Origin: a virus
Taxonomy: Duplodnaviria > Heunggongvirae > Uroviricota > Caudoviricetes
Virus record (IMG/VR): IMGVR_UViG_2537561685_000014
Coordinates: 1-17,832 of that record
Length of the DNA: 17,832 bases
Strand: one strand, 5' to 3'
The notes below the pieces were generated by a model. It ran no database searches, was not told the DNA's origin, and saw only the letters and a program-made list of their open reading frames with translations. Position 1 is the first letter of the stretch. Each line of letters opens with the position of its first letter. The translations under genes were made by a program, and so were the position numbers. Positions 1 through 7,877 of the stretch are shown piece after piece.

Positions 1-91
1 ACAGCTTACGAACCTGAGGAGTAAGAGACCAGGCGGGGGAGAATCCCTCGCCACCTCTGATGTGTCAGGCATCCTCAACGCACCCGCACTT

Positions 92-118
92 AACCCGCTT
101 CGGCGGGTTTTGTTTTTT
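92..118 (+). terminator. Intrinsic terminator-like hairpin
   Basis: Stem CCCGC / GCGGG with loop TTCG, followed by TTTTGTTTTTT. It lies inside the 5' part of the 62..469 ORF, so it probably ends an upstream transcript. Confidence 0.5.
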
Positions 119-190
119 CCTAGCATTCTGGTTTACAATTCGCACGCCAGCCTGAACAACTGGCACCTGCTGCGCCAGCAGAGACAACCG

Positions 191-469
191 ATGGCGCACG
201 ATACCAAATTACACAATTCTGATGATTCTGCCGTCTTTGCCAGCAGGCACGGGCGGCGTTCCCGCACTTTCAAATCTGACTGGTTCCAGCATCCCCCATG
301 CACTGAAGAACAGGCCGAGTGGCTAATTCAGTGCTACCGCAGACACGGATACGAGATTAAGAAAGCCCTCAGCCTCGATTATCGTCACTGGATAATCTCC
401 GTCAGGCTTCCTTACTCCGAACGCCCACCGCGTCCGTCCCGCACATTCCAGCAACGCATCTGGAGGTAA
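191..469 (+). CDS. Hypothetical nin-region protein (92 aa)
   Basis: First ATG after the terminator hairpin, in the frame that stays open back to the window edge; stop 2 nt before the next gene. No family recognised. The start could instead be GTG 62 or lie upstream of the window. Confidence 0.4.
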   Translation: MAHDTKLHNSDDSAVFASRHGRRSRTFKSDWFQHPPCTEEQAEWLIQCYRRHGYEIKKALSLDYRHWIISVRLPYSERPPRPSRTFQQRIWR

Positions 470-470
470 C

Positions 471-1517
471 GTGCGGGTATTACTTCGACCTGTTCTGGTA
501 CCGGAACTCGGGCTGGTGATCGTTAAGCCGGGCCGGGAATCCATGCCGGTATTCCACAATACCCGGGTACTGGTGGAGCCGGAACCGAAAAGCATGCGTA
601 ATCTGCCGTCCGGGGTCGTTCCTGCCGTTCGCCAGCCGCTAGTGGAAGACAAAACATTGCTGCCGTTTTTCAGTAACGCACGGGTGATTCGTGCTGCTGG
701 TGGTGCTGGTGCATTGTCTGACTGGCTGTTGCGCCATATTAAATCCTGCCAGTGGCCTCATGGTGATTACCATCACAGCGAAACCGTCATACATCGTTAC
801 GGTGCTGGCGCGATGGTGTTGTGCTGGCACTGTGACAACCAGTTGCGTGACCAGTCCTCCGAATCACTTGAGCAACTTGCTCACCAAAACCTGTCAGCAT
901 GGATGATTGATGTCATGCGCCATGCAATGAATGGCACACAGGAGCGGGAATTATCGCTGGCTGAATTATCCTGGTGGGCTGTCTGCAATCAGGTGGCGGA
1001 CGCACTACCGGAGGTAGTATTACGTCGTTCTCTGGGGTTACGTGCGGAAAAAATTCGCTCGGTGTACCGCGAAAGCGACATCGTACCGGGAGAGCAGACC
1101 GCCACCAGCATACTGAAGCAGCGCACAAAAAATCTTGCGCCGCTGCCTCACGCCCACCAGCAAAATCCACCACAGGAAAAGACGGTGGTCAGCATTGCTG
1201 TTGATCCGGAGTCTCCGGAATCTTTCATGAAGCGACCTAAACGTCGCCGTTGGGTAAATGAGAAATATACGCGCTGGGTAAAGACACAGCCGTGTGCGTG
1301 TTGTGATAAGCCAGCCGACGATCCCCATCACCTGATTGGTCATGGTCAGGGCGGAATAGGGACAAAATCCCACGATATTTTCACGCTACCGCTGTGTCGG
1401 GAGCATCACAACGAGCTTCATGCGGATCCGCTGGCGTTCGAAGAAAAGCATGGTTCCCAGATTGATTTAATTTTTCGTTTTCTTGATCGCGCCTTTGCAA
1501 CCGGCGTGCTCGGGTAA
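471..1517 (+). CDS. DUF968/YdfU-like nin-region protein with C-terminal HNH-like Cys/His motif
   Basis: 348-aa ORF with GTG start 4 nt after GGAGG. C-terminus has PCACCDKP...DPHHLIGHGQGG...LPLCREHHNELH, an HNH/zinc-finger-like pattern that I recall from YdfU-type prophage proteins. Confidence 0.55.
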   Translation: MRVLLRPVLVPELGLVIVKPGRESMPVFHNTRVLVEPEPKSMRNLPSGVVPAVRQPLVEDKTLLPFFSNARVIRAAGGAGALSDWLLRHIKSCQWPHGDYHHSETVIHRYGAGAMVLCWHCDNQLRDQSSESLEQLAHQNLSAWMIDVMRHAMNGTQERELSLAELSWWAVCNQVADALPEVVLRRSLGLRAEKIRSVYRESDIVPGEQTATSILKQRTKNLAPLPHAHQQNPPQEKTVVSIAVDPESPESFMKRPKRRRWVNEKYTRWVKTQPCACCDKPADDPHHLIGHGQGGIGTKSHDIFTLPLCREHHNELHADPLAFEEKHGSQIDLIFRFLDRAFATGVLG

Positions 1518-1529
1518 AAGAGGTTACTG

Positions 1530-1901
1530 ATGCGTATAGAGTTTGTTTTGCCTTACCCGCCGACGGTGAACACCTACTGGCGTCGTCGTGGCAGCACATA
1601 TTTTGTATCAAAAGCCGGTGAGCGTTATCGCCGGGATGTGGCACTTATTGTCCGCCAGCAGCGGCTGAAATTAAACCTGTCCGGAAGGCTGGCAATAAAA
1701 ATTACTGCAGAGCCGCCGGATAAGCGCCGTCGGGACCTGGACAATATCCTGAAAGCACCGCTGGATGCACTGACGCATGCGGGGCTTCTCATAGACGACG
1801 AGCAGTTTGATGAAATCAATATTGTGCGCGGTAAGCTCGTTCCTGGTGGTCGGCTGGGCGTGAAGATTTGCGAAATTAGAGGTGATAGTAATGGGGCGTG
1901 A
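1530..1901 (+). CDS. rusA: Holliday-junction resolvase RusA
   Basis: 123 aa; ATG preceded by AGAGG. Motifs LPYPPTVNTYWRR, PDKRRRDLDNILKAPLDALTHAGLLIDDEQ and GGRL match the RusA pattern. Typical position just upstream of Q. Confidence 0.85.
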   Translation: MRIEFVLPYPPTVNTYWRRRGSTYFVSKAGERYRRDVALIVRQQRLKLNLSGRLAIKITAEPPDKRRRDLDNILKAPLDALTHAGLLIDDEQFDEINIVRGKLVPGGRLGVKICEIRGDSNGA

Positions 1902-2244
1902 TATGTATGAGGTTTTAGACCGCTGGGGGGCATGGGCTGCAGCAGAAAATAGTGGTGTCGATTGGCAACCGATAGCAGCGGGCTTCAAGGGGCTTTTACC
2001 TCATGGTAAAAAGTCACGGATTCAGTGTGATGATGACGAAGGCATTATGATAGACAGTTGTGTGGCTCGGTTGAGAAGGTATAAACCAGAGGAATATGAG
2101 CTCATCATAGCCCACTTTGTTATTGGTATCTCATTACGCACTATTGCCAAAAAGAGAAGGTGTTCAGATGGCACGATTAGAAAGGAATTACAAACTGCAA
2201 TTGGTTTTGTAGAGGGTATTACGAGCGTTATTGCATGTAAATAA
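1891..2244 (+). CDS. Late-gene antiterminator Q, small QuuD/phage-82-like type
   Basis: ATG 1891 preceded by AGAGGTGA and overlapping the rusA stop (the ORF track starts at GTG 1882). Motifs LDRWGAWAA and IAAGFKGL plus Cys-rich centre are typical of small Q antiterminators of defective lambdoid prophages. Confidence 0.75.
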   Translation: MGRDMYEVLDRWGAWAAAENSGVDWQPIAAGFKGLLPHGKKSRIQCDDDEGIMIDSCVARLRRYKPEEYELIIAHFVIGISLRTIAKKRRCSDGTIRKELQTAIGFVEGITSVIACK

Positions 2245-2247
2245 AAG

Positions 2248-2273
2248 CTAAAAGCCACCGTAGTGGCTTTTAG
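2248..2273. terminator. Bidirectional terminator-like hairpin between convergent genes
   Basis: Perfect 11-bp inverted repeat CTAAAAGCCAC / GTGGCTTTTAG with CGTA loop, T-rich on both strands; sits 4 nt after the Q stop. Confidence 0.6.
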
Positions 2274-2450
2274 CATTTTAGGATTGTGCAGGTAATGTTT
2301 TGTTCAATTTAGTAAAGAAGTTAGATTGGCTTGTTACAGTACGTCGACTCTTTCCAGAAGTACTCAACTGAAAGAAATCATTGATGCTTTTGGGTTGAGT
2401 TCTTTCATAGGCTTGCTTAAGTGACATGTGTTCCCCTTGTCTATTTGTTG

Positions 2451-3734
2451 CTATGACCGTGAAAAGTAGTGATGGTTCAGTTCTTTTGCAAAATAGTGCT
2501 TACGTTTAACCCAGATAAAACCATCAGCTTTAGAAATGATTGCAACATCTATGGGGCCTCCCACTGTTTCAGTATCATCGGAGACCTTGCGCTTGAAAGC
2601 GGTTAAATTTACTAATGATTCAGCCATATAAGCTAAATCTTGCTTGGGTAAAAACTCGATCATATTTACGACTTTGTCAACATAGTTTTCTCGGACAAAG
2701 CTATCAATACGCCCCTTGCAATCGGAAACAGTTCTGCGCACTACATCAACTATAGCATCCTTGGCTCCTTCGATATCTGAAGTGGGCACCAAATCTGTGA
2801 TTACTGAATCAATACCATCAAGTAAATCGCCGATAGAACGTTGATACTCAGCATGAAGATTTTGGATAAGATGTGAACTAGCTCCTTGCATGAAAGCAGA
2901 AACTTCATCCTCTTGCGCAAAGGGAGTCACGCCGCAATTAGGAGTGATGCAGCACTTGTCAGCATCTGTGGTTTTCCTTATTTTATCATTAAAGAAGCCA
3001 CAAACTTCATATGATAATACTTTAGGGTAATAGTCTTTATCGCCATAACCTGCAATCACAATCCCAGAGACGGAACCAATATCACTTTGCTTGCATATCA
3101 TAGCTGCCAATACATCACTAACTGCTTTTGTCAACTGTGGAGTTATGGATATTGAATCAAAGTCACTAAACTTTTGAGCAATGATGCGTTGGGTAATTGA
3201 TGAAGCATAGGTTTGGGCTGCTTGTTCATCATCCGGAGTAAAACCATCAAAGTAATTAATATCAGATAATTTTGTAAGGAGATCGTTGCAATAATTCGTG
3301 AGGTCTGTAACAAATTGATTCTTATCGAAGTTAACGAGATATGTTGGTTCGAGACCTTCAGAAAAAGCATCAACAAGCATGCTGAATACAATCTCGCTCA
3401 GGAAGTGATAAAGATGAGCCTCACGCATACCTGGTGTGATGATTGATTTAGCTGACTGTAGATAATTGAAGAAATCCTCAGCATATTCCTCCAAAGAGTC
3501 AAAACATTTAGAGCCTAAATCCTTTCTATAAGCCTTAATGATAAGCTCCCATGGAGCTGTGCAGAGATCACCAGTTCCATATACCATCAAACCTACAGGA
3601 TGATGTTTAGTGAGAGCGAAAAGCTTTTCAGCGCCATTATAGATTTTATGTTTGCCGCCTCCAGAAATCGTTACAGCTGAATCTGCGGCTAAAGCTACTG
3701 CGGTCTTGTTAAATACGGCTATTTCTGCTGTCAT
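2451..3734 (-). CDS. Proteasome-beta/HslV-like Ntn-hydrolase homolog with large extra regions (427 aa); function unknown
   Basis: Long minus-strand ORF, markedly AT-rich compared with its flanks. N-terminus MTAEIAVFNKTAVALAADSAVT fits the Thr1 ... Asp17 ... Lys33 layout of proteasome beta/HslV; VGLMVYGTGDL, IVIAGYGDKD and C-terminal TVGGPIDVAIISKADG resemble other conserved proteasome segments. Family assignment is by recalled motifs only. Confidence 0.6.
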   Translation of the reverse strand: MTAEIAVFNKTAVALAADSAVTISGGGKHKIYNGAEKLFALTKHHPVGLMVYGTGDLCTAPWELIIKAYRKDLGSKCFDSLEEYAEDFFNYLQSAKSIITPGMREAHLYHFLSEIVFSMLVDAFSEGLEPTYLVNFDKNQFVTDLTNYCNDLLTKLSDINYFDGFTPDDEQAAQTYASSITQRIIAQKFSDFDSISITPQLTKAVSDVLAAMICKQSDIGSVSGIVIAGYGDKDYYPKVLSYEVCGFFNDKIRKTTDADKCCITPNCGVTPFAQEDEVSAFMQGASSHLIQNLHAEYQRSIGDLLDGIDSVITDLVPTSDIEGAKDAIVDVVRRTVSDCKGRIDSFVRENYVDKVVNMIEFLPKQDLAYMAESLVNLTAFKRKVSDDTETVGGPIDVAIISKADGFIWVKRKHYFAKELNHHYFSRS

Positions 3735-3768
3735 TTTTTACATAGGGTTTATATGTTGTGTAATGAGA

Positions 3769-3797
3769 AAAATACAAAAAAATTAACGCGTACGCAA
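3769..3797 (-). promoter_or_regulatory. Candidate sigma70 promoter for the minus-strand gene
   Basis: On the minus strand: TTGCGT (3797..3792), 17-nt spacer, TATTTT (3774..3769), about 35 nt upstream of the ATG at 3734. Weak Shine-Dalgarno. Confidence 0.3.
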
Positions 3798-3842
3798 AAA
3801 TTCTTGTAATCTGTTAAGAGTGGTTACTTCGCCACACAGCTT

Positions 3843-3868
3843 AAACCCGCCGTCGAGCGGGTTTTTTT
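3843..3868 (+). terminator. Intrinsic terminator-like hairpin
   Basis: Stem AAACCCGC / GCGGGTTT with loop CGTCGA, then TTTTGT on the plus strand. No obvious plus-strand gene ends here; may insulate the island. Confidence 0.45.
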
Positions 3869-3990
3869 GTACCTGTAAACTTGGTGCAGTACGGTAAACA
3901 CGCTGGTGGTAGTGAATACTGACTTTTTATCTTGCTGGCTTTTTAGACAAGAGTTATTGGTATGTCATGTTAACCAGAAGGGAAAAAGAC

Positions 3991-4185
3991 ATGCTAAAAC
4001 AGCAAGATATGACAGAAACGGCGAAAGTTGTTTTTAATGAATTAAGCATCGAACCGGCAACAGTCGGGGAGATTGCACAAAACACATACCTTTCACGCGA
4101 ACGCTGTCAGTTAATACTGACCCAGTTGGTTATGGCGGGGCTGGCAGATTACCAGTTCGGCTGTTACAGACGTCTTCAGCAATGA
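3991..4185 (+). CDS. Small winged-helix/HTH DNA-binding protein (64 aa)
   Basis: ATG 3991 preceded by AAGGGA (the ORF track starts at an upstream ATG 3967). Segment ATVGEIAQNTYLSRERCQLILTQLVMAGL looks like a helix-turn-helix; overall layout resembles small FaeA/PapI-like regulators (tentative). Confidence 0.5.
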   Translation: MLKQQDMTETAKVVFNELSIEPATVGEIAQNTYLSRERCQLILTQLVMAGLADYQFGCYRRLQQ

Positions 4186-4334
4186 AGGGCTTTTAATTTG
4201 TGAAAATGGGCGGCTGGTGGGTGTTGGTAGCACCTGCCAGCCATTCGCTCATGCTTACTGGTCACAAGCGAACCACGGCCCACTGCTTTAGCGCAAAAGC
4301 AGAGTGAGCCTACCAGAGTTACGCTTACTGATCC

Positions 4335-5381
4335 ATGAAAAATACTGTAAAAATAAACAGTGTTGATTTAATCAACGCTGATTGCCTGCATTTTATTCAG
4401 TCCCTGCCTGATGATTCCATTGACCTGATTGTTACCGATCCGCCTTACTTCAAGGTGAAACCCAACGGTTGGGACAATCAGTGGAAAGGGGACGAAGATT
4501 ACCTTAAGTGGCTGGACCACTGTCTGGCCCAGTTCTGGCGGGTGTTGAAACCTGCCGGAAGCCTTTACCTGTTCTGTGGGCATCGCCTGGCATCTGATAT
4601 CGAAATCATGATGCGTGAACGCTTTAATGTGCTGAACCACATTATCTGGGCGAAGCCGTCCGGACGCTGGAACGGATGCAACAAGGAAAGCCTGCGGGCG
4701 TATTTCCCGGCAACAGAGCGCATTCTGTTTGCTGAACATTATCAGGGGCCATACCAGCCCAAAAATGACGGCTATGCGGCAAAGGGGCGCGAGCTTAAAC
4801 AGTGCGTCATGGCCCCGCTGATTTCTTACTTTCGTGATGCGCGAGAATCTCTGGGAATAACATCAAAACAGATAGCGGAAGCCACCGGAAAGAAAAACAT
4901 GGCGTCACACTGGTTTGGTGCCAGTCAGTGGCAGTTGCCGAACGAGGCTGATTACAAAAAACTTCAGGCGCTGTTCGCGCGTGTTGCAGCAGAAAAACAC
5001 CAGCGCGGGGAGCTGGAAAAGCCGCACCACCAGCTGGTCAGCACATACAGTGAACTGAACCGGCAATATGCCAGCCTGCAGGAGGAGTATAAATCCCTGC
5101 GGCGTTATTTTTCCGTATCAGCTGCTGTTCCGTATACGGATGTCTGGACGCACAAGCCTGTGCAGTATTATCCAGGCAAACATCCCTGTGAAAAACCGGC
5201 AGATATGTTGCGTCAGATAATTACTGCCAGCAGTCGCCCCGGTGATTTGGTCGCTGATTTTTTTATGGGGTCTGGCTCAACAATAAAAGCAGCACTTTCA
5301 CTGGGACGTCGCGCAATTGGCGTGGAACTGGAAGAAGAGAGATTTAATCAGACTGTAACTGAAATAAAAAATAATCGTTAA
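4335..5381 (+). CDS. DNA methyltransferase, beta-class (probably N6-adenine), orphan
   Basis: 348 aa. Catalytic motif IV LIVTDPPYF near the N-terminus and AdoMet motif I DFFMGSGST near the C-terminus; this IV-before-I order is typical of beta-class amino-methyltransferases. GC content is host-like, unlike the upstream AT-rich gene. Confidence 0.85.
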   Translation: MKNTVKINSVDLINADCLHFIQSLPDDSIDLIVTDPPYFKVKPNGWDNQWKGDEDYLKWLDHCLAQFWRVLKPAGSLYLFCGHRLASDIEIMMRERFNVLNHIIWAKPSGRWNGCNKESLRAYFPATERILFAEHYQGPYQPKNDGYAAKGRELKQCVMAPLISYFRDARESLGITSKQIAEATGKKNMASHWFGASQWQLPNEADYKKLQALFARVAAEKHQRGELEKPHHQLVSTYSELNRQYASLQEEYKSLRRYFSVSAAVPYTDVWTHKPVQYYPGKHPCEKPADMLRQIITASSRPGDLVADFFMGSGSTIKAALSLGRRAIGVELEEERFNQTVTEIKNNR

Positions 5382-5549
5382 ATATGCATTTAATAATTTC
5401 TTTATTTCATAAAAAATAAAAATATATACGTATATTTACAAATCTTGATATGATTTTCCATTGAAAAGAGAGCTGGCATTATTAATATCGGTACCCGGTT
5501 CCGAAGGGGATGTAAGCGCGGTCATTTTTATTTCTCTTGAGGAACCTGT

Positions 5550-5625
<76 letters not shown>

Positions 5626-5628
5626 TAT

Positions 5629-5703
<75 letters not shown>

Positions 5704-6061
5704 GAGAAACAAGCCTTATTGTATCGTTGCACTGGCGTATTTTTTATTGCGTGGGAGCAGGTTGTTTTTAAAAGGCATTCTGTTTTCTGGCTGTGATTTG
5801 AGGTCGGTTATAGCCACAGTGCTGTTTTTTACACCACTGGAATGGTGCATTATCGGTGGAAATTGAGCATTTCCTGACAGGGGCCGATGATGCACTATCC
5901 CGGTGTTGTAAATAACACTACAGAGGTGTTCCTCAGTGCGAGGGTGGTTTATGTAACTGTTTAGCGGGAAACCACAGTATTCATGGAGAGATGGATACTT
6001 CGGGGGGCACCCGACACCTCTGTTTTTCTACTACAAAAATGATTCATCTCTGGCATTTTTC

Positions 6062-6088
6062 AACCGCCGTTCCGGGCGGTTTTTTTTA
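6062..6088 (+). terminator. Intrinsic terminator
   Basis: Stem AACCGCC / GGCGGTT with loop GTTCCG, followed by a run of 8 T. Confidence 0.7.
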
Positions 6089-6410
6089 TTCTGAACTCAG
6101 AAAAGAATACACGGGCATTGATATTACCCGTGTGGCAAGGCCATGAAAGCCAATAATGAACTGAGCGCAAAAAAAGCGCGGCTGTCGGATTAACGCCGCG
6201 GGACAAAGTCCGTGAAGAAGAATAAGCATCAGTCTCCTCCAGGAGACGATTTGATATTACTAAGCTTTAAAAATGGTTTAAACCCCCGGATTAACCTTAA
6301 TTTCAGATAAGCTTTATTTCATTTTCTCCGAGCCACGTCAGGCGCATATCACATCAGATAACACCACATAAAAGGTATCTGCGGGTGCCTTTCACGGGGT
6401 GTTTTTTTAC

Positions 6411-6434
6411 GGGCCGCTGGTGGCCCTTTTTTAT
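6411..6434 (+). terminator. Intrinsic terminator, tR'-like, just upstream of the lysis genes
   Basis: Stem GGGCC / GGCCC with loop GCTGGT, then TTTTTTATTT; 17 nt before the first lysis-gene start codon. Position is analogous to lambda tR' ahead of S. Confidence 0.7.
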
Positions 6435-6450
6435 TTACAGGAGAAAAAGT

Positions 6451-6843
6451 ATGTCTGAACCCTTATCCGGTTCCGGCACGGCTGCAGCGCTCGGCGGGGC
6501 GACGGTGTACGGGCTGTTTACCGGAACGGATTTCGGGATTGTGTTTGGTGCCTTTGCCGGGGCGTTATTTGTGGCAACGATGCCGCAGGCGCTTTCAGCC
6601 TGGCGTGTGGCGGCACATTTTCTGGTGTCGTTCATTGTTGGTGTGCTGGGGGCAGAAGTTCTGGCATCCTGGCTGGTAAAGCATACAGAGTTTGACGGTG
6701 CACCTGTCGACGCATTGTGTGCAGTACTGGTGTCAGTGGTGTCGGTGAAGATTCTCTCGTTCATCCACCAGCAGGATATTGCATCACTGGTGTCCGGTCT
6801 GTTCTCCCGTCTGCGGGGCGGAGGAGGCGGCAATGTTAAGTAA
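6451..6843 (+). CDS. Lysis-cassette membrane protein, putative holin (130 aa)
   Basis: ATG 6451 preceded by AGGAG (the ORF track starts at GTG 6385, which would run through the terminator). Three to four hydrophobic helices, Gly-rich charged C-terminus; first gene of the lysis cassette. Confidence 0.5.
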   Translation: MSEPLSGSGTAAALGGATVYGLFTGTDFGIVFGAFAGALFVATMPQALSAWRVAAHFLVSFIVGVLGAEVLASWLVKHTEFDGAPVDALCAVLVSVVSVKILSFIHQQDIASLVSGLFSRLRGGGGGNVK

Positions 6844-7111
6844 CCTTCCCGGATTGCTGAATGTGGCGTTATGCACGGTTATCGTGCTGACGCTCTTTTT
6901 TTATCGTCGTCGTGATTCCAGACATAAACCGTTGATGTCATGGCTGGCCTGGCTGCTGATGCTGCTTTATGCCTTTGCACCACTCAGTTATCTGTGCGGT
7001 CGCCCGTTAGCGGCGAACTGGCTGGCGGTGGGGCTTAATCTGCTGTTCTGCGTGTTGGTTATTCGCGCACGCGGGAACGTTTCAAAAATCTTTGTATTAC
7101 GAAGACGCTGA
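6833..7111 (+). CDS. Lysis-cassette membrane protein, putative second holin/antiholin (92 aa)
   Basis: ATG 6833 preceded by GGAGGAGG, overlapping the end of the previous gene (the ORF track starts at an upstream ATG 6779); three predicted transmembrane segments; stop immediately before the endolysin ATG. Confidence 0.45.
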   Translation: MLSNLPGLLNVALCTVIVLTLFFYRRRDSRHKPLMSWLAWLLMLLYAFAPLSYLCGRPLAANWLAVGLNLLFCVLVIRARGNVSKIFVLRRR

Positions 7112-7112
7112 T

Positions 7113-7658
7113 ATGAAGTCGAAAGATGAAATTTTTGACGAAGTTCTGGGAAAAGAGGGCGGTTACGTCAATCACCCGGATGATAAAGGCGGACCGACAA
7201 AATGGGGTATTACGGAAAAAGTCGCCCGCGCTCACGGATATCAGGGCGATATGCGTGACCTGACACGCGAACAGGCACTGGAAATCCTTGAGGCGGATTA
7301 CTGGTTCGGACCACGCTTTGATCAGGTGGCCGCATTATCCTCTGATATTGCTGCAGAGTTGTGTGATACCGGTGTGAATATGGGGCCGTCCGTAGCATCG
7401 AAAATGCTCCAACGCTGGCTGAACGTTTTCAACCTGCAAGGCAAATTGTTCCCGGATATGGACGCAGACGGGCGTATCGGCCCCCGCACGATTAATGCAC
7501 TACGGACTTATCTGCAAAAACGCGGCAAAGACGGCGAACTGGTGATGCTGAAGGCGCTGAATTGCACGCAGGGCGACCGCTATCTGGAGCTGGCAGAAAA
7601 ACGCGAGGCCAACGAGTCGTTTGTCTACGGCTGGATGAAAGAGCGCGTAGCAGTTTAA
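7113..7658 (+). CDS. Endolysin, GH108-type lysozyme with peptidoglycan-binding domain
   Basis: Motif EGGYVNHPDDKGGPTKWGIT is the glycoside-hydrolase-108 N-terminal signature; C-terminal half resembles a PG_binding_3 domain. ATG 7113 directly follows the upstream stop (the ORF track starts at TTG 7092). No signal-anchor sequence. Confidence 0.8.
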   Translation: MKSKDEIFDEVLGKEGGYVNHPDDKGGPTKWGITEKVARAHGYQGDMRDLTREQALEILEADYWFGPRFDQVAALSSDIAAELCDTGVNMGPSVASKMLQRWLNVFNLQGKLFPDMDADGRIGPRTINALRTYLQKRGKDGELVMLKALNCTQGDRYLELAEKREANESFVYGWMKERVAV

Positions 7659-7752
7659 AAACTGACGCTGAAGTGCTGAACACCCTCAACTCACGCAGGC
7701 TCTTTTCTGGGGTTACGATGAGCGAAAGTAAGGGGTACCGCATCAGATAGCA

Positions 7753-7786
7753 AAAACCCCGGCTGCTGGAACAGTCCGGGGTTTTT
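7753..7786 (+). terminator. Terminator-like hairpin after the endolysin
   Basis: 10-bp stem AAAACCCCGG / CCGGGGTTTT with 13-nt loop, followed by TAGTTTT. Confidence 0.55.
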
Positions 7787-7877
7787 AGTTTTCACGTCAA
7801 AGAGGAAATTGTGAGTAGTGAGTACGGAGAAAATCCTCGTGGGAAAGTATAAAAGATTCTTTTTGAGGTTGTCCATT

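Follow-up and report, generated by a model that had tools for sequence, protein, structure and literature searches.

A conserved non-coding leader upstream of the lysis genes in a lambdoid phage, and a candidate site of Q loading 2.6 kb away

Late gene control of the lambda type involves the antiterminator Q, the promoter pR', a Q-binding element, the terminator tR' and a short constitutive transcript (lambda 6S RNA; StxS in Stx phages; PMC7547250). The binding element of Q21 is a direct repeat, with two 8-bp subsites within pR' (bioRxiv 10.1101/651190). In EHEC prophages, convergent small RNAs (AgvB, AsxR and the EcOnc RNAs) are found at a moron site downstream of pR' (PMC4104026), and morons with their own terminators are known from Juhala et al. 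(2000), as that work is cited in PMC4104026. Small RNAs related to STnc100 have been described under the name PasD (bioRxiv 10.64898/2026.05.13.724894), and a start site for phage tRNAs has been mapped downstream of tR' in Sakai Sp5 (PMC7547250).

We compared these systems with a single stretch of Caudoviricetes DNA, the window, of 17,832 nucleotides (positions 1 to 17,832 of IMG/VR record IMGVR_UViG_2537561685_000014). Its late-gene leader is of a fairly ordinary lambdoid type and holds a few unannotated RNAs. As in lambda-type control, a Q-family antiterminator is accompanied by what appears to be its cognate promoter-proximal block, with a predicted intrinsic terminator following at once, and additional terminators precede the lysis genes. 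Unlike the lambda-type arrangement, 1.5 kb of opposite-strand cargo lies between the cassette and the Q gene, the short transcript is predicted to be only ~50 nt long, and the terminators T1 and T2 upstream of the lysis genes are not tR'. Our preferred reading, to which we assign a probability of about 0.7, is that positions 5700-6450 form a conserved non-coding part of the late leader, that Q loads at 3783-3868, and that a series of terminators insulates the lysis genes.

The late antiterminator Q is encoded at 1882..2244 on the plus strand and is a short Q21-family protein of 120 aa. In a profile search it scored 148.1 bits against Pfam PF06530 (cut-off 26), PHROG 79 ('Q-like') gave the same assignment, and the Q21 structures 6p1b/6jnx matched it distantly and weakly (E = 0.0024). 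Just 3' of the Q stop codon lies a 12-bp hairpin (2247..2274), which reads as a terminator-like site on the minus strand (2274..2247) and is the predicted terminator of a minus-strand cargo operon; because this hairpin adjoins the stop codon, there is no space for pR' beside Q. The cargo genes (49 aa and 427 aa; 2278..3734, minus strand; PHROG 5990) are inserted between Q and the candidate pR', such that 2247-3734 consists throughout of terminator and minus-strand genes. Relatives carry other minus-strand genes in the same slot after Q. The first-pass annotation of this DNA does not mention this 1.5 kb of cargo, which would separate Q from the cassette at which it acts.

The candidate pR' lies beyond the cargo at 3783..3812 on the plus strand. 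It comprises a weak -35 hexamer (TTAACG), which counts against the reading, the palindrome GCGTACGC at 3788-3795 and a -10 hexamer (TAATCT) at 3807-3812, with the start predicted at ~3818-3820. An initial transcribed region, GTTAAGAGTGGTTACTTCGCCACACAGCTTAA, and a putative tR' found by terminator scan (stem 3843-3864, T-run to 3868) follow within 3813..3868; a sigma-dependent pause element was sought in 3813-3845 and none was identified. The resulting block of ~90 nt (3783-3868) is common to SfII, Stx1_499 and mEp460, all of which have the same Q type, and in a set of 55 loci it was present at every locus with a PF06530-type Q and at none of the ~25 loci with a different Q. In some phages it begins only 3-46 nt 3' of the Q stop codon.

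Within the block, the initial transcribed region and tR' are kept across all Q clades (a 15-mer of the former occurs in more than 120 viral contigs) and the -10 retains the form TAnnnT across sites, whereas the type of palindrome changes with the Q clade (126-137 sites). The form GCGTACGC accompanies Q proteins with 76-100% identity to that of the window, GCGGWCCGC those with 48-55% and TACGTACGTA those with 44-47%; GCGGTCCGC and TACGTACGTA are site forms belonging to other Q clades. Median Q identity is 79-99% within palindrome groups, compared with 42-62% between the major groups. These data make the palindrome between -35 and -10 a candidate Q-binding element. The element of Q21 is a direct repeat, while the clade-linked element here is a palindrome of 8-10 bp, so it could instead bind another protein. 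Most likely, judging from this comparison, Q acts at the candidate pR', 2.6 kb upstream of the lysis genes and outside 5700-6450, in a cassette that also holds the conserved initial transcribed region and tR'. The tR' position is occupied by the terminator at 3843-3868 and not by T1 or T2, which follow the Q-linked block at a distance of 2.2-2.6 kb. A 72-aa ORF and a DNA methyltransferase gene (3967..5381, plus strand) are inserted between tR' and the tRNA region; in three relatives without them (L029, L036 and L037) the block directly precedes that region.

Positions 5461-6450 appear to be organized as three non-coding units, the first of which would be transcribed independently of Q. We took as a sigma-70 signature a pair of -35 and -10 hexamers 16-18 nt apart that are conserved while the spacer diverges. 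The scan found such a site at 5461..5488 on the plus strand (TTGAAA, 16 nt, TAATAT), and hexamers and spacing are kept in 10 relatives (TTGAAA-16-TAATAT or TATTAT) despite diverged spacer and flanks. This promoter, absent from the first-pass annotation, would lie past tR' and the methylase insertion and give rise to the tRNAs and a structured trailer RNA. ARAGORN identified tRNA-Thr(UGU) and tRNA-Gly(UCC) at 5550..5703 (plus strand; Rfam 69.8 and 59.6 bits), and these were the only hits of an Rfam scan at gathering and permissive thresholds, all other matches being sub-threshold. The trailer (5704..5830, plus strand) folds into a three-way junction closed by GCACUG/CAGUGC and followed by U6 at 5825-5830 (MFE -40.9 kcal/mol, z = -3.07); its consensus fold scores -37.6 on the plus strand, compared with -13.7 on the minus strand. 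The U6 run may be a partial terminator, and a partial stop of the tRNA transcript at this point might leave the source of the RNA that ends at T1 unsettled. Next to it, at 5832..5908 on the plus strand, lies a long imperfect hairpin of 19 pairs that are 98% paired among relatives, seven of them changed on both sides and many of them G-U; it is a possible processing site, and its Rfam matches, resembling miRNA precursors, are sub-threshold.

A structured RNA resembling STnc100 then extends over 5921..6088 on the plus strand. It has a closing helix (5923-5929/6014-6020), a hairpin UCCUC-AGUGC-GAGGG and the motif CGGGGGGCACCCG, and its 3' end would be formed by T1, the putative terminator of the tRNA unit. 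T1 consists of a stem at 6062-6081 (AACCGCC/GGCGGTT, 7 pairs, loop of 6) and T8 at 6080-6087; among 32 distinct sequences, 28-32 retain the core CCGCC/GGCGG, with loops that vary. In the same 32 sequences, 50 pairs over 5832-6088 are 97.9% paired, compared with 40-57% when the structure is slid along the alignment, and 14 pairs are changed on both sides, compared with 1-3 when slid; many pairs are G-U. No conserved ORF was found in the interval among the relatives compared. Small ORFs at 5991-6146 (plus strand), 6060-6206, 6086-6229 and 5716-5895 (minus strand) were considered as genes and rejected, as they carry frameshifts and stops in relatives.

Structured RNAs from the 3' external transcribed spacers of tRNA operons, such as 3'ETS-leuZ, were reportedly described by Lalaouna and co-workers in 2015. 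The RNA here is similarly placed, with an operon's final tRNA on one side and that operon's predicted intrinsic terminator on the other, and would therefore be released by tRNA processing; unlike 3'ETS-leuZ, it is phage-encoded and much longer (~385 nt from tRNA to T1). It is also conceivable, if rather doubtful, that the T1-ended RNA genuinely belongs to the STnc100/PasD family, from which it would have diverged far, and that it regulates through Hfq as those RNAs do. It aligns collinearly with the STnc100 model over its full length (positions 1-206) and shares its helix order, closing helix, GUGCG-loop hairpin, motif CGGGRGGCACCCG and 3' terminator, and the cross-family match is the best outside its own family in both directions. 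Like STnc100 and PasD it occupies the late region of a lambdoid prophage, with T1 on the plus strand facing minus-strand terminators at 6133 and 6200. Phage Stx1_499 has a matching layout, in which STnc100 (plus) and a convergent AgvB (minus) follow stx1B; at locus L005 the two span 9363-9576 (plus) and 9578-9637 (minus). The score against Rfam STnc100 (RF02076), however, is 19.9 bits and fails to reach the gathering score of 47; that threshold was reached by none of the 12 homologous loci scanned. The reciprocal search with R1, a covariance model that we built from the plus-strand core, gave a marginal 12.4 bits (E = 0.083) against true STnc100 and no match to PasD2. Blastn at word size 7 between the spacer and the late region of E2348/69 PP2 (PasD2, PasA) returned chance matches only.

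On the opposite strand we identified a candidate small RNA of ~80 nt (6168..6248, minus strand), whose gene would run from ~6248 to 6168 and converge on T1. It begins with a 5' hairpin (6247..6232), continues with the single-stranded UGAUGCUUAUUCUUCUUCAC (6231..6212) and GGACUUUGUCC (6211..6201), and ends with a terminator stem (6200..6177) and U7 (6175..6169). The 5' hairpin is the palindrome GTCTCCTCCAGGAGAC that the first-pass annotation had noticed between the two terminators; it is indeed present, at 6232-6247 rather than 6231-6246. Among 40 distinct sequences the RNA is 98.3% paired, compared with 38-51% when slid, with 3 pairs changed on both sides, and its 5' part is variable while its 3' part is conserved. 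The palindrome itself retains pairing through changes on both sides regardless of Q type. A putative promoter lies at 6254..6282 on the minus strand (-35 TTTAAA at 6282..6277, 17 nt, -10 TAATAT at 6259..6254). Its hexamers and 17-nt spacing are kept despite a wholly different spacer in L019 and the L063 family (forms TTTAAA-17-TAATAT, TAGTAT or TATGAT), the signature expected of sigma-70. A second terminator-like hairpin on the minus strand, at 6109..6133, is followed by U7 in most relatives; in the window the run is degenerate. Neither minus-strand hairpin, 6200-6177 (with U7) or 6133-6109, appears in the first-pass annotation.

The predicted arrangement resembles the EHEC pairs. There, too, a terminator-ended RNA on the plus strand lies opposite a short RNA from the minus strand, downstream of pR' and ahead of the lysis genes, and the minus-strand member, like the candidate, combines a variable 5' region with conserved terminator sequence at its 3' end. 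Unlike AgvB and AsxR, which are 51-60 nt long, the candidate is ~80 nt, and it has no detectable sequence or model match to them (RF02702 and RF02703; E up to 10, both strands, 5380-6500). Complements of its seed within the window were found at its own locus only.

Alternatively, the hairpins in 6109-6247 could act in the plus-strand late mRNA leader, as RNase III sites or stabilizers, with no small RNA made from the minus strand. Being near-perfect palindromes, they fold on both strands, and the consensus is more stable on the plus strand (-19.7, compared with -16.0 on the minus strand). In the L029-type lineage it is also the plus strand on which pairing of the two central hairpins is better, and a unit of hairpin plus GGAC-AAA-GUCC occurs in tandem repeat. 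We nevertheless consider this unlikely. Both the minus-strand promoter signature and its spacing are conserved, and U-runs follow the hairpins on the minus strand only. In the commonest lineage the U-run behind the first minus-strand terminator is broken up, which weighs against the small RNA. One pair of the 5' hairpin is U-G in 21 of 37 sequences, which on the plus strand would read C-A, and the 6109-6133 hairpin of relatives is more stable on the minus strand (-11.5 kcal/mol, compared with -8.6). Finally, homology to the L071 lineage stops just after the minus-strand U-run.

The third unit, between the small-RNA gene and the lysis genes, folds on the plus strand (6330..6408; 40 sequences) into hairpin Y (6330-6346), a CA-rich single strand and a long hairpin Z (6360-6403) followed by U7 (6402-6408). 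The plus strand is favoured (-22.4, compared with -17.4 kcal/mol), and the fold is 98% paired over the 40 sequences with many G-U pairs; the copy of Z in the window carries a 6-nt deletion. We considered the CA-rich stretch 6344-6370 as a single-stranded decoy of the GcvB type and rejected it, as some of the stretch belongs to the 5' arm of Z. The hairpin with U7 at 6360-6408 does not feature in the first-pass annotation. T2 follows at 6411..6434 (plus strand) with a stem at 6411-6426 (GGGCCG/TGGCCC, 6 pairs, loop of 4), paired in 98% of cells over 40 sequences, and T6 at 6427-6432; against Rfam it gave a weak, sub-threshold mmgR-like match. Z would thus be the first and T2 the second of two tandem terminators directly 5' of the holin ribosome-binding site (Shine-Dalgarno GGAG at 6440-6443; ATG at 6451). 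The lysis genes (6451..7658, plus strand) encode a holin (Phage_holin_8), a second holin (Phage_holin_3_7) and a GH108 endolysin.

The first-pass annotation is partly supported by these results. Both of its terminators, at 6062-6088 and 6411-6434, were recovered by the consensus terminator scan as G+C-rich stem-loops followed by a U-run; they lie 323 nt apart (it had given about 320), and T1, T2 and the palindrome are all conserved in relatives. The reported end of T2, 6434, is 17 nt from the ATG of the gene it had called holin-like, which Pfam identifies as a holin (Phage_holin_8, E = 3e-22), and expression of the lysis genes most plausibly requires Q-dependent read-through of both terminators. 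The equation of T2 with lambda tR' and a late promoter within 5700-6450 are not supported, and comparison among phages points to a lysis promoter outside that interval. In the preferred reading, tR', T1, Z and T2 would jointly bar transcription from the constitutive promoters from entering the lysis genes, and only polymerase modified by Q at pR' would read through all four.

A quite improbable alternative is that the interval is inert debris, in which T1, Z and T2 were left by lost morons, the hairpins are decaying and no functional RNA is made. Three architectures among relatives break exactly at T1 and at Z, a modularity in line with the preferred reading; between these points relatives carry either nothing or TerB/DUF3927 genes, which end at Z. 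In relatives, Z and T2 close this insertion, and breakpoints fall at terminators, as in morons; unlike morons, the slot in the window has no coding part and holds a candidate small-RNA gene instead. The lack of a conserved ORF, the degenerate U-run after 6133..6109 and the deletion in Z would also fit debris. Against it, 32-40 distinct sequences show structure maintained by compensatory and G-U changes in three separate units, the promoters retain their hexamers and spacing while spacers diverge, and 372-483 of 5426 complete E. coli genomes contain the region. That pR' lies inside 5700-6450, with T2 as a lambda-like tR' and Q engaging polymerase between the terminators, might be suggested by T2 adjoining the first lysis gene and by terminators flanking a palindrome to which a protein might bind, but is very hard to sustain: the scan found zero plus-strand promoter-like sites in 5704-6450, the sole conserved promoter signature in the interval faces away from the lysis genes, the palindrome behaves like an RNA hairpin and shows variation unrelated to Q type, the Q-linked element is the block at 3783-3868 with its own terminator, the same scan of lambda placed a promoter-like site matching pR' ~600 nt upstream of S and gave no terminator-like site immediately ahead of that gene, and the tRNA-spacer module, because it is found downstream of two different, unrelated Q/pR' systems, cannot hold a Q-specific site.

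We tentatively suggest, at less than even odds, that the locus combines a clade of short Q21-family proteins recognizing a palindrome in the pR' spacer with a new, cassette-built family of minus-strand prophage small RNAs. If so, the short-Q21 clade would be widespread, with specificity diversified by coupled changes in protein and site, and opposite-strand cargo would routinely hold its pR' cassette 0.6-3 kb away from the Q gene. The small-RNA cassette would consist of its own promoter, an exchangeable 5' hairpin and seed, and a fixed 3' Hfq/terminator module, and the cassette is present in ~9% of complete E. coli genomes. Its RNA would either target host RNAs in trans or counter the late leader in cis, the latter damping leaky lysis-gene expression. 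Because AgvB, AsxR, StxS and the Pas RNAs rewire their hosts in related phages, the leader RNAs are reasonable candidates for a similar role. For this Q clade, Q loading should be sought at the recognizable block, possibly kilobases from the Q gene, which bears on the annotation of late promoters in prophages, carriers of toxin genes included. Layered terminators would explain how constitutive tRNA and small-RNA promoters are accommodated inside a lethal lysis operon.

The three leader units are unannotated, structurally conserved and non-coding: NCBI PGAP annotation of the region is empty or consists of spurious ORFs, and a full-text literature search did not find its conserved sequences. Species-representative genomes gave one match, a chance 20-mer in Paraburkholderia. 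In phages with a lambda-S-type holin, homology to the region ends at 6436-6439, just past the U-run of T2. Across 4500-8000 of the window, the consensus scan detected 15 terminator-like sites, compared with 4.0 +/- 2.0 in shuffled sequences.

The window is the late region of a lambdoid prophage. Its plus strand carries genes for a DUF968/HNH protein (471-1517), RusA (1530-1901), the late antiterminator Q (1882-2244; Pfam PF06530, 148 bits; remotely similar to Q21 structures, E = 0.0024), a 72-aa ORF (3967-4185), a DNA methyltransferase (4335-5381), tRNA-Thr (5550-5625), tRNA-Gly (5629-5703) and, after a 747-nt gap (5704-6450), two holins and a GH108 endolysin (6451-7658). Behind Q lie a 12-bp hairpin (2247-2274, strand not assigned) and minus-strand cargo genes (2278-2427 and 2451-3734). 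Terminator-like sites numbered 15 in 4500-8000, against 4.0 +/- 2.0 in shuffles. A consensus scan of the plus strand recovered both terminators named in the first-pass annotation, T1 (6062-6088; stem 6062-6081, then T8) and T2 (6411-6434; stem 6411-6426, then T6), with a spacing of 323 nt where about 320 had been given; the reported end of T2 does lie 17 nt before the ATG at 6451, which begins a Phage_holin_8 gene. The palindrome described between them is present, but at 6232-6247 and not 6231-6246, one base away. The comparison of T2 with lambda tR', the first terminator after the late promoter pR', fails. In the lambda genome, where the start of S is 45186, the promoter-like site corresponding to pR' falls at 44552-44580; immediately ahead of S the scan picked up nothing terminator-like. 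The 194-nt length of 6S RNA would place tR' ~400 nt before S. T2 is directly before the holin, whereas lambda tR' is well upstream of S, and T2 is therefore not placed as tR' is. The late leader of this lambdoid prophage does have terminators in layers, which is largely ordinary.

The late promoter had been sought within 5700-6450; a Q-linked block was found instead at 3783-3868 (the pR' block). The gene map leaves no room for pR' directly beside Q. In SfII, Stx1_499 and mEp460, which encode close relatives of the window Q, minus-strand genes likewise follow Q directly, and a ~90-nt block, of which 3783-3868 is the window copy, is common to all three after this cargo. Among 55 viral contigs holding the tRNAs-to-T2 spacer module, the block was present wherever Q is of the PF06530 type (identity to the window Q 100%, 87% or 44-50%) and absent from all ~25 loci with a different, 180-aa Q. 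Searching with the conserved 15-mer GTTAAGAGTGGTTAC and adding earlier loci gave 137 sites, 126 of which have a palindrome at the same position, centred ~15 nt upstream of a -10 hexamer, TAnnnT, that ends 1 nt before GTTAAGAG. A Q ORF lies at most 7 kb upstream at 101 of the 137 sites, and palindrome type tracks Q clade: the upstream Q is 76-100% identical to the window Q with GCGTACGC, 48-55% with GCGGWCCGC, 44-47% with TACGTACGTA, 41-44% with TACRATCGTA and 42% with TGTTATAACA. Median Q identity was 79-99% within palindrome groups compared with 42-62% between major groups. All Q clades retain the transcribed portion of the block along with its terminator (3843-3864, then a T-run, by terminator scan). 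Most phages have the block 0.6-3 kb from Q with cargo between; in some, the conserved transcribed block begins 3-46 nt past the Q stop codon, which leaves the promoter adjoining the 3' end of Q or overlapping it.

From this comparison, we read 3783-3868 as pR' with a clade-specific candidate Q-binding element, a conserved loading/pause region and then tR'. The predicted constitutive transcript would be short, ~50 nt, and a counterpart of lambda 6S RNA and StxS (PMC7547250). The candidate -35 is weak, and no pause element was identifiable in the conserved transcribed region. The solved Q21 binding site is a direct repeat (bioRxiv 10.1101/651190), whereas the candidate element in the window is a palindrome. 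This comparative placement of pR', with a palindrome specific to the Q clade, is a contribution of this analysis. Opposite-strand gene content between Q and the block (2247-3734) differs from phage to phage, with genes of 49 aa and 427 aa in the window (PHROG 5990, without a Pfam match) and two or three other hypothetical genes each in SfII, Stx1_499 and mEp460; by its gene content, the slot looks like a cargo hot spot. The 72-aa ORF and methyltransferase, within 3869-5460, are missing from three related loci (L029, L036 and L037), where the block lies directly before the tRNA region; they are thus another insertion, this one separating tR' from the tRNA promoter.

That promoter, also added by this analysis, was predicted by scan on the plus strand at 5461-5488 (TTGAAA-16-TAATAT); its hexamers and spacing are kept in relatives with diverged spacer and flanks. 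In Sakai Sp5, a mapped start site drives phage tRNAs downstream of tR' (PMC7547250). The leader (5495-5549) contains conserved complementary hexamers, GGTTCC (5497-5502) and GGAACC (5541-5546, just before the tRNA-Thr 5' end), which may form a helix. Downstream of tRNA-Gly, the plus strand encodes a three-way junction with U6 (5704-5830; z = -3.07), a long hairpin (5832-5908) and a domain closed by helix 5923-5929/6014-6020 and ending at T1. The conserved U6 (5825-5830), directly 3' of the junction's closing helix, could terminate the tRNA unit in part. Across 32 distinct sequences, the 50 proposed pairs were 97.9% paired, compared with 40-57% when partners were slid, and both sides had changed at 14 pairs compared with 1-3. 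G-U pairs are frequent and place the structure on the plus strand, which consensus folding energies likewise favour. The Rfam STnc100 model aligned over its full length to 5892-6091, with helix order and the CGGGRGGCACCCG motif in common, but scored just 19.9 bits where the gathering score is 47. A reciprocal covariance model of the RNA core (R1) scored the STnc100 of Stx1_499, taken as a true member (190.7 bits), at 12.4 bits (E = 0.083), and did not match PasD2. By these models the T1-ended RNA resembles STnc100, with family membership below threshold.

A second unannotated RNA unit with covariation support, added here like the first, was predicted on the minus strand. It comprises a promoter (-35 TTTAAA 6282..6277, 17 nt, -10 TAATAT 6259..6254), a 5' hairpin that is the palindrome itself (6247..6232), a pyrimidine-rich single strand (6231..6212), GGACUUUGUCC (6211..6201) and a terminator stem (6200..6177) with U7 after it; in most relatives a second hairpin (6133..6109) also has U7. 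At least 119 viral contigs contain the motif, as do 483 of 5426 E. coli genomes, ~190 of these with the 3' part only. Hexamers, spacing and 3' module persist even where a lineage's spacer, 5' hairpin or seed sequence is unrelated, and in one lineage homology stops right after the U-run. Its 16 pairs were 98.3% paired in 40 sequences (38-51% when slid), with both-side changes at three; one pair is U-G in 21 sequences, where the plus strand would read a C-A mismatch. Contrary to a minus-strand reading, however, pairing in one lineage is better on the plus strand, and overall folding energies differ little between the strands. The convergent layout mirrors the STnc100(+)/AgvB(-) pair after stx1B and agrees with the 'convergent sRNA genes' reported from the moron site of Sakai prophages (PMC4104026); neither the AgvB nor the AsxR model matched either strand of 5380-6500 (E up to 10). 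Matches to C4 antisense RNA and isrK near antirepressor genes of related phages (L005, Stx1_499, 539-727; L021, 5859-6057) are unrelated to the late-leader finding.

The third unit consists of hairpin Y (6330-6346), a CA-rich stretch, hairpin Z (6360-6403) with U7, and T2 with U6. It was 98% paired in 40 distinct sequences (43-55% when slid), and numerous G-U pairs place it on the plus strand. Several relatives have 6 nt more (GATGCC) in the loop-side arm of Z, at window 6380-6384; the window apparently lost them between short repeats, and its Z still folds. The spacer has three architectures: A is the window arrangement; B has TerB (141 aa) and DUF3927 (50 aa) genes between T1 and Z, the DUF3927 stop codon just upstream of Z, and Z and T2 as the terminators of this moron; C has T1, one small hairpin, then Z and T2. 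Breakpoints thus coincide with terminators. We infer that, without Q, polymerase from pR' would halt at tR', that from the tRNA promoter at T1 and perhaps in part at U6 (5825-5830), and leak-through or moron-started transcription at Z or T2. Transcription from the minus-strand promoter would head away from the lysis genes and end before running into T1. Only Q-modified polymerase, reading through all terminators, would reach the holins and endolysin; lysogen by-products would be two tRNAs, a structured T1-ended RNA of ~170-385 nt and a minus-strand RNA of ~80 nt.

The tRNAs-to-T2 segment is found again, at 72-100% identity, in 372 of 5426 E. coli genomes as well as the 55 viral contigs. Either Q type can precede it, and either a Phage_holin_8 or a lambda-S-type holin can follow; at lambda-S-type loci homology ends at 6436-6439, just past the T2 U-run. 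No small ORF of the interval is conserved in relatives. The spacer is a mobile, non-coding module. Among species-representative genomes, the sole match was an isolated exact 20-mer in Paraburkholderia oxyphila (L281, 1587-1606), without similarity on either side; in 596 Gb, chance alone should yield about one such match. The segment 5700-6450 is 100% identical to E. coli strain 120899 (L003), in which PGAP locus tags pass from RS23540 (tRNA-Gly) to RS23550 (holin), skipping a number; a feature formerly called in the 747-nt gap there seems to have been withdrawn. The large terminase gene of that strain (12241) is annotated as incomplete, its C-terminus missing and an ISCro1 transposase gene starting directly after it, unlike the uninterrupted 641-aa ORF of the window (10104-12029). 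The window is therefore likely to derive from another genome with the same prophage. In phage SerU-LTIIb (KU052038; 1122-4127), the tRNA-spacer-holin module is duplicated in tandem, the first copy being a full architecture A and the second a short architecture C, both upstream of the LT-IIb toxin genes.
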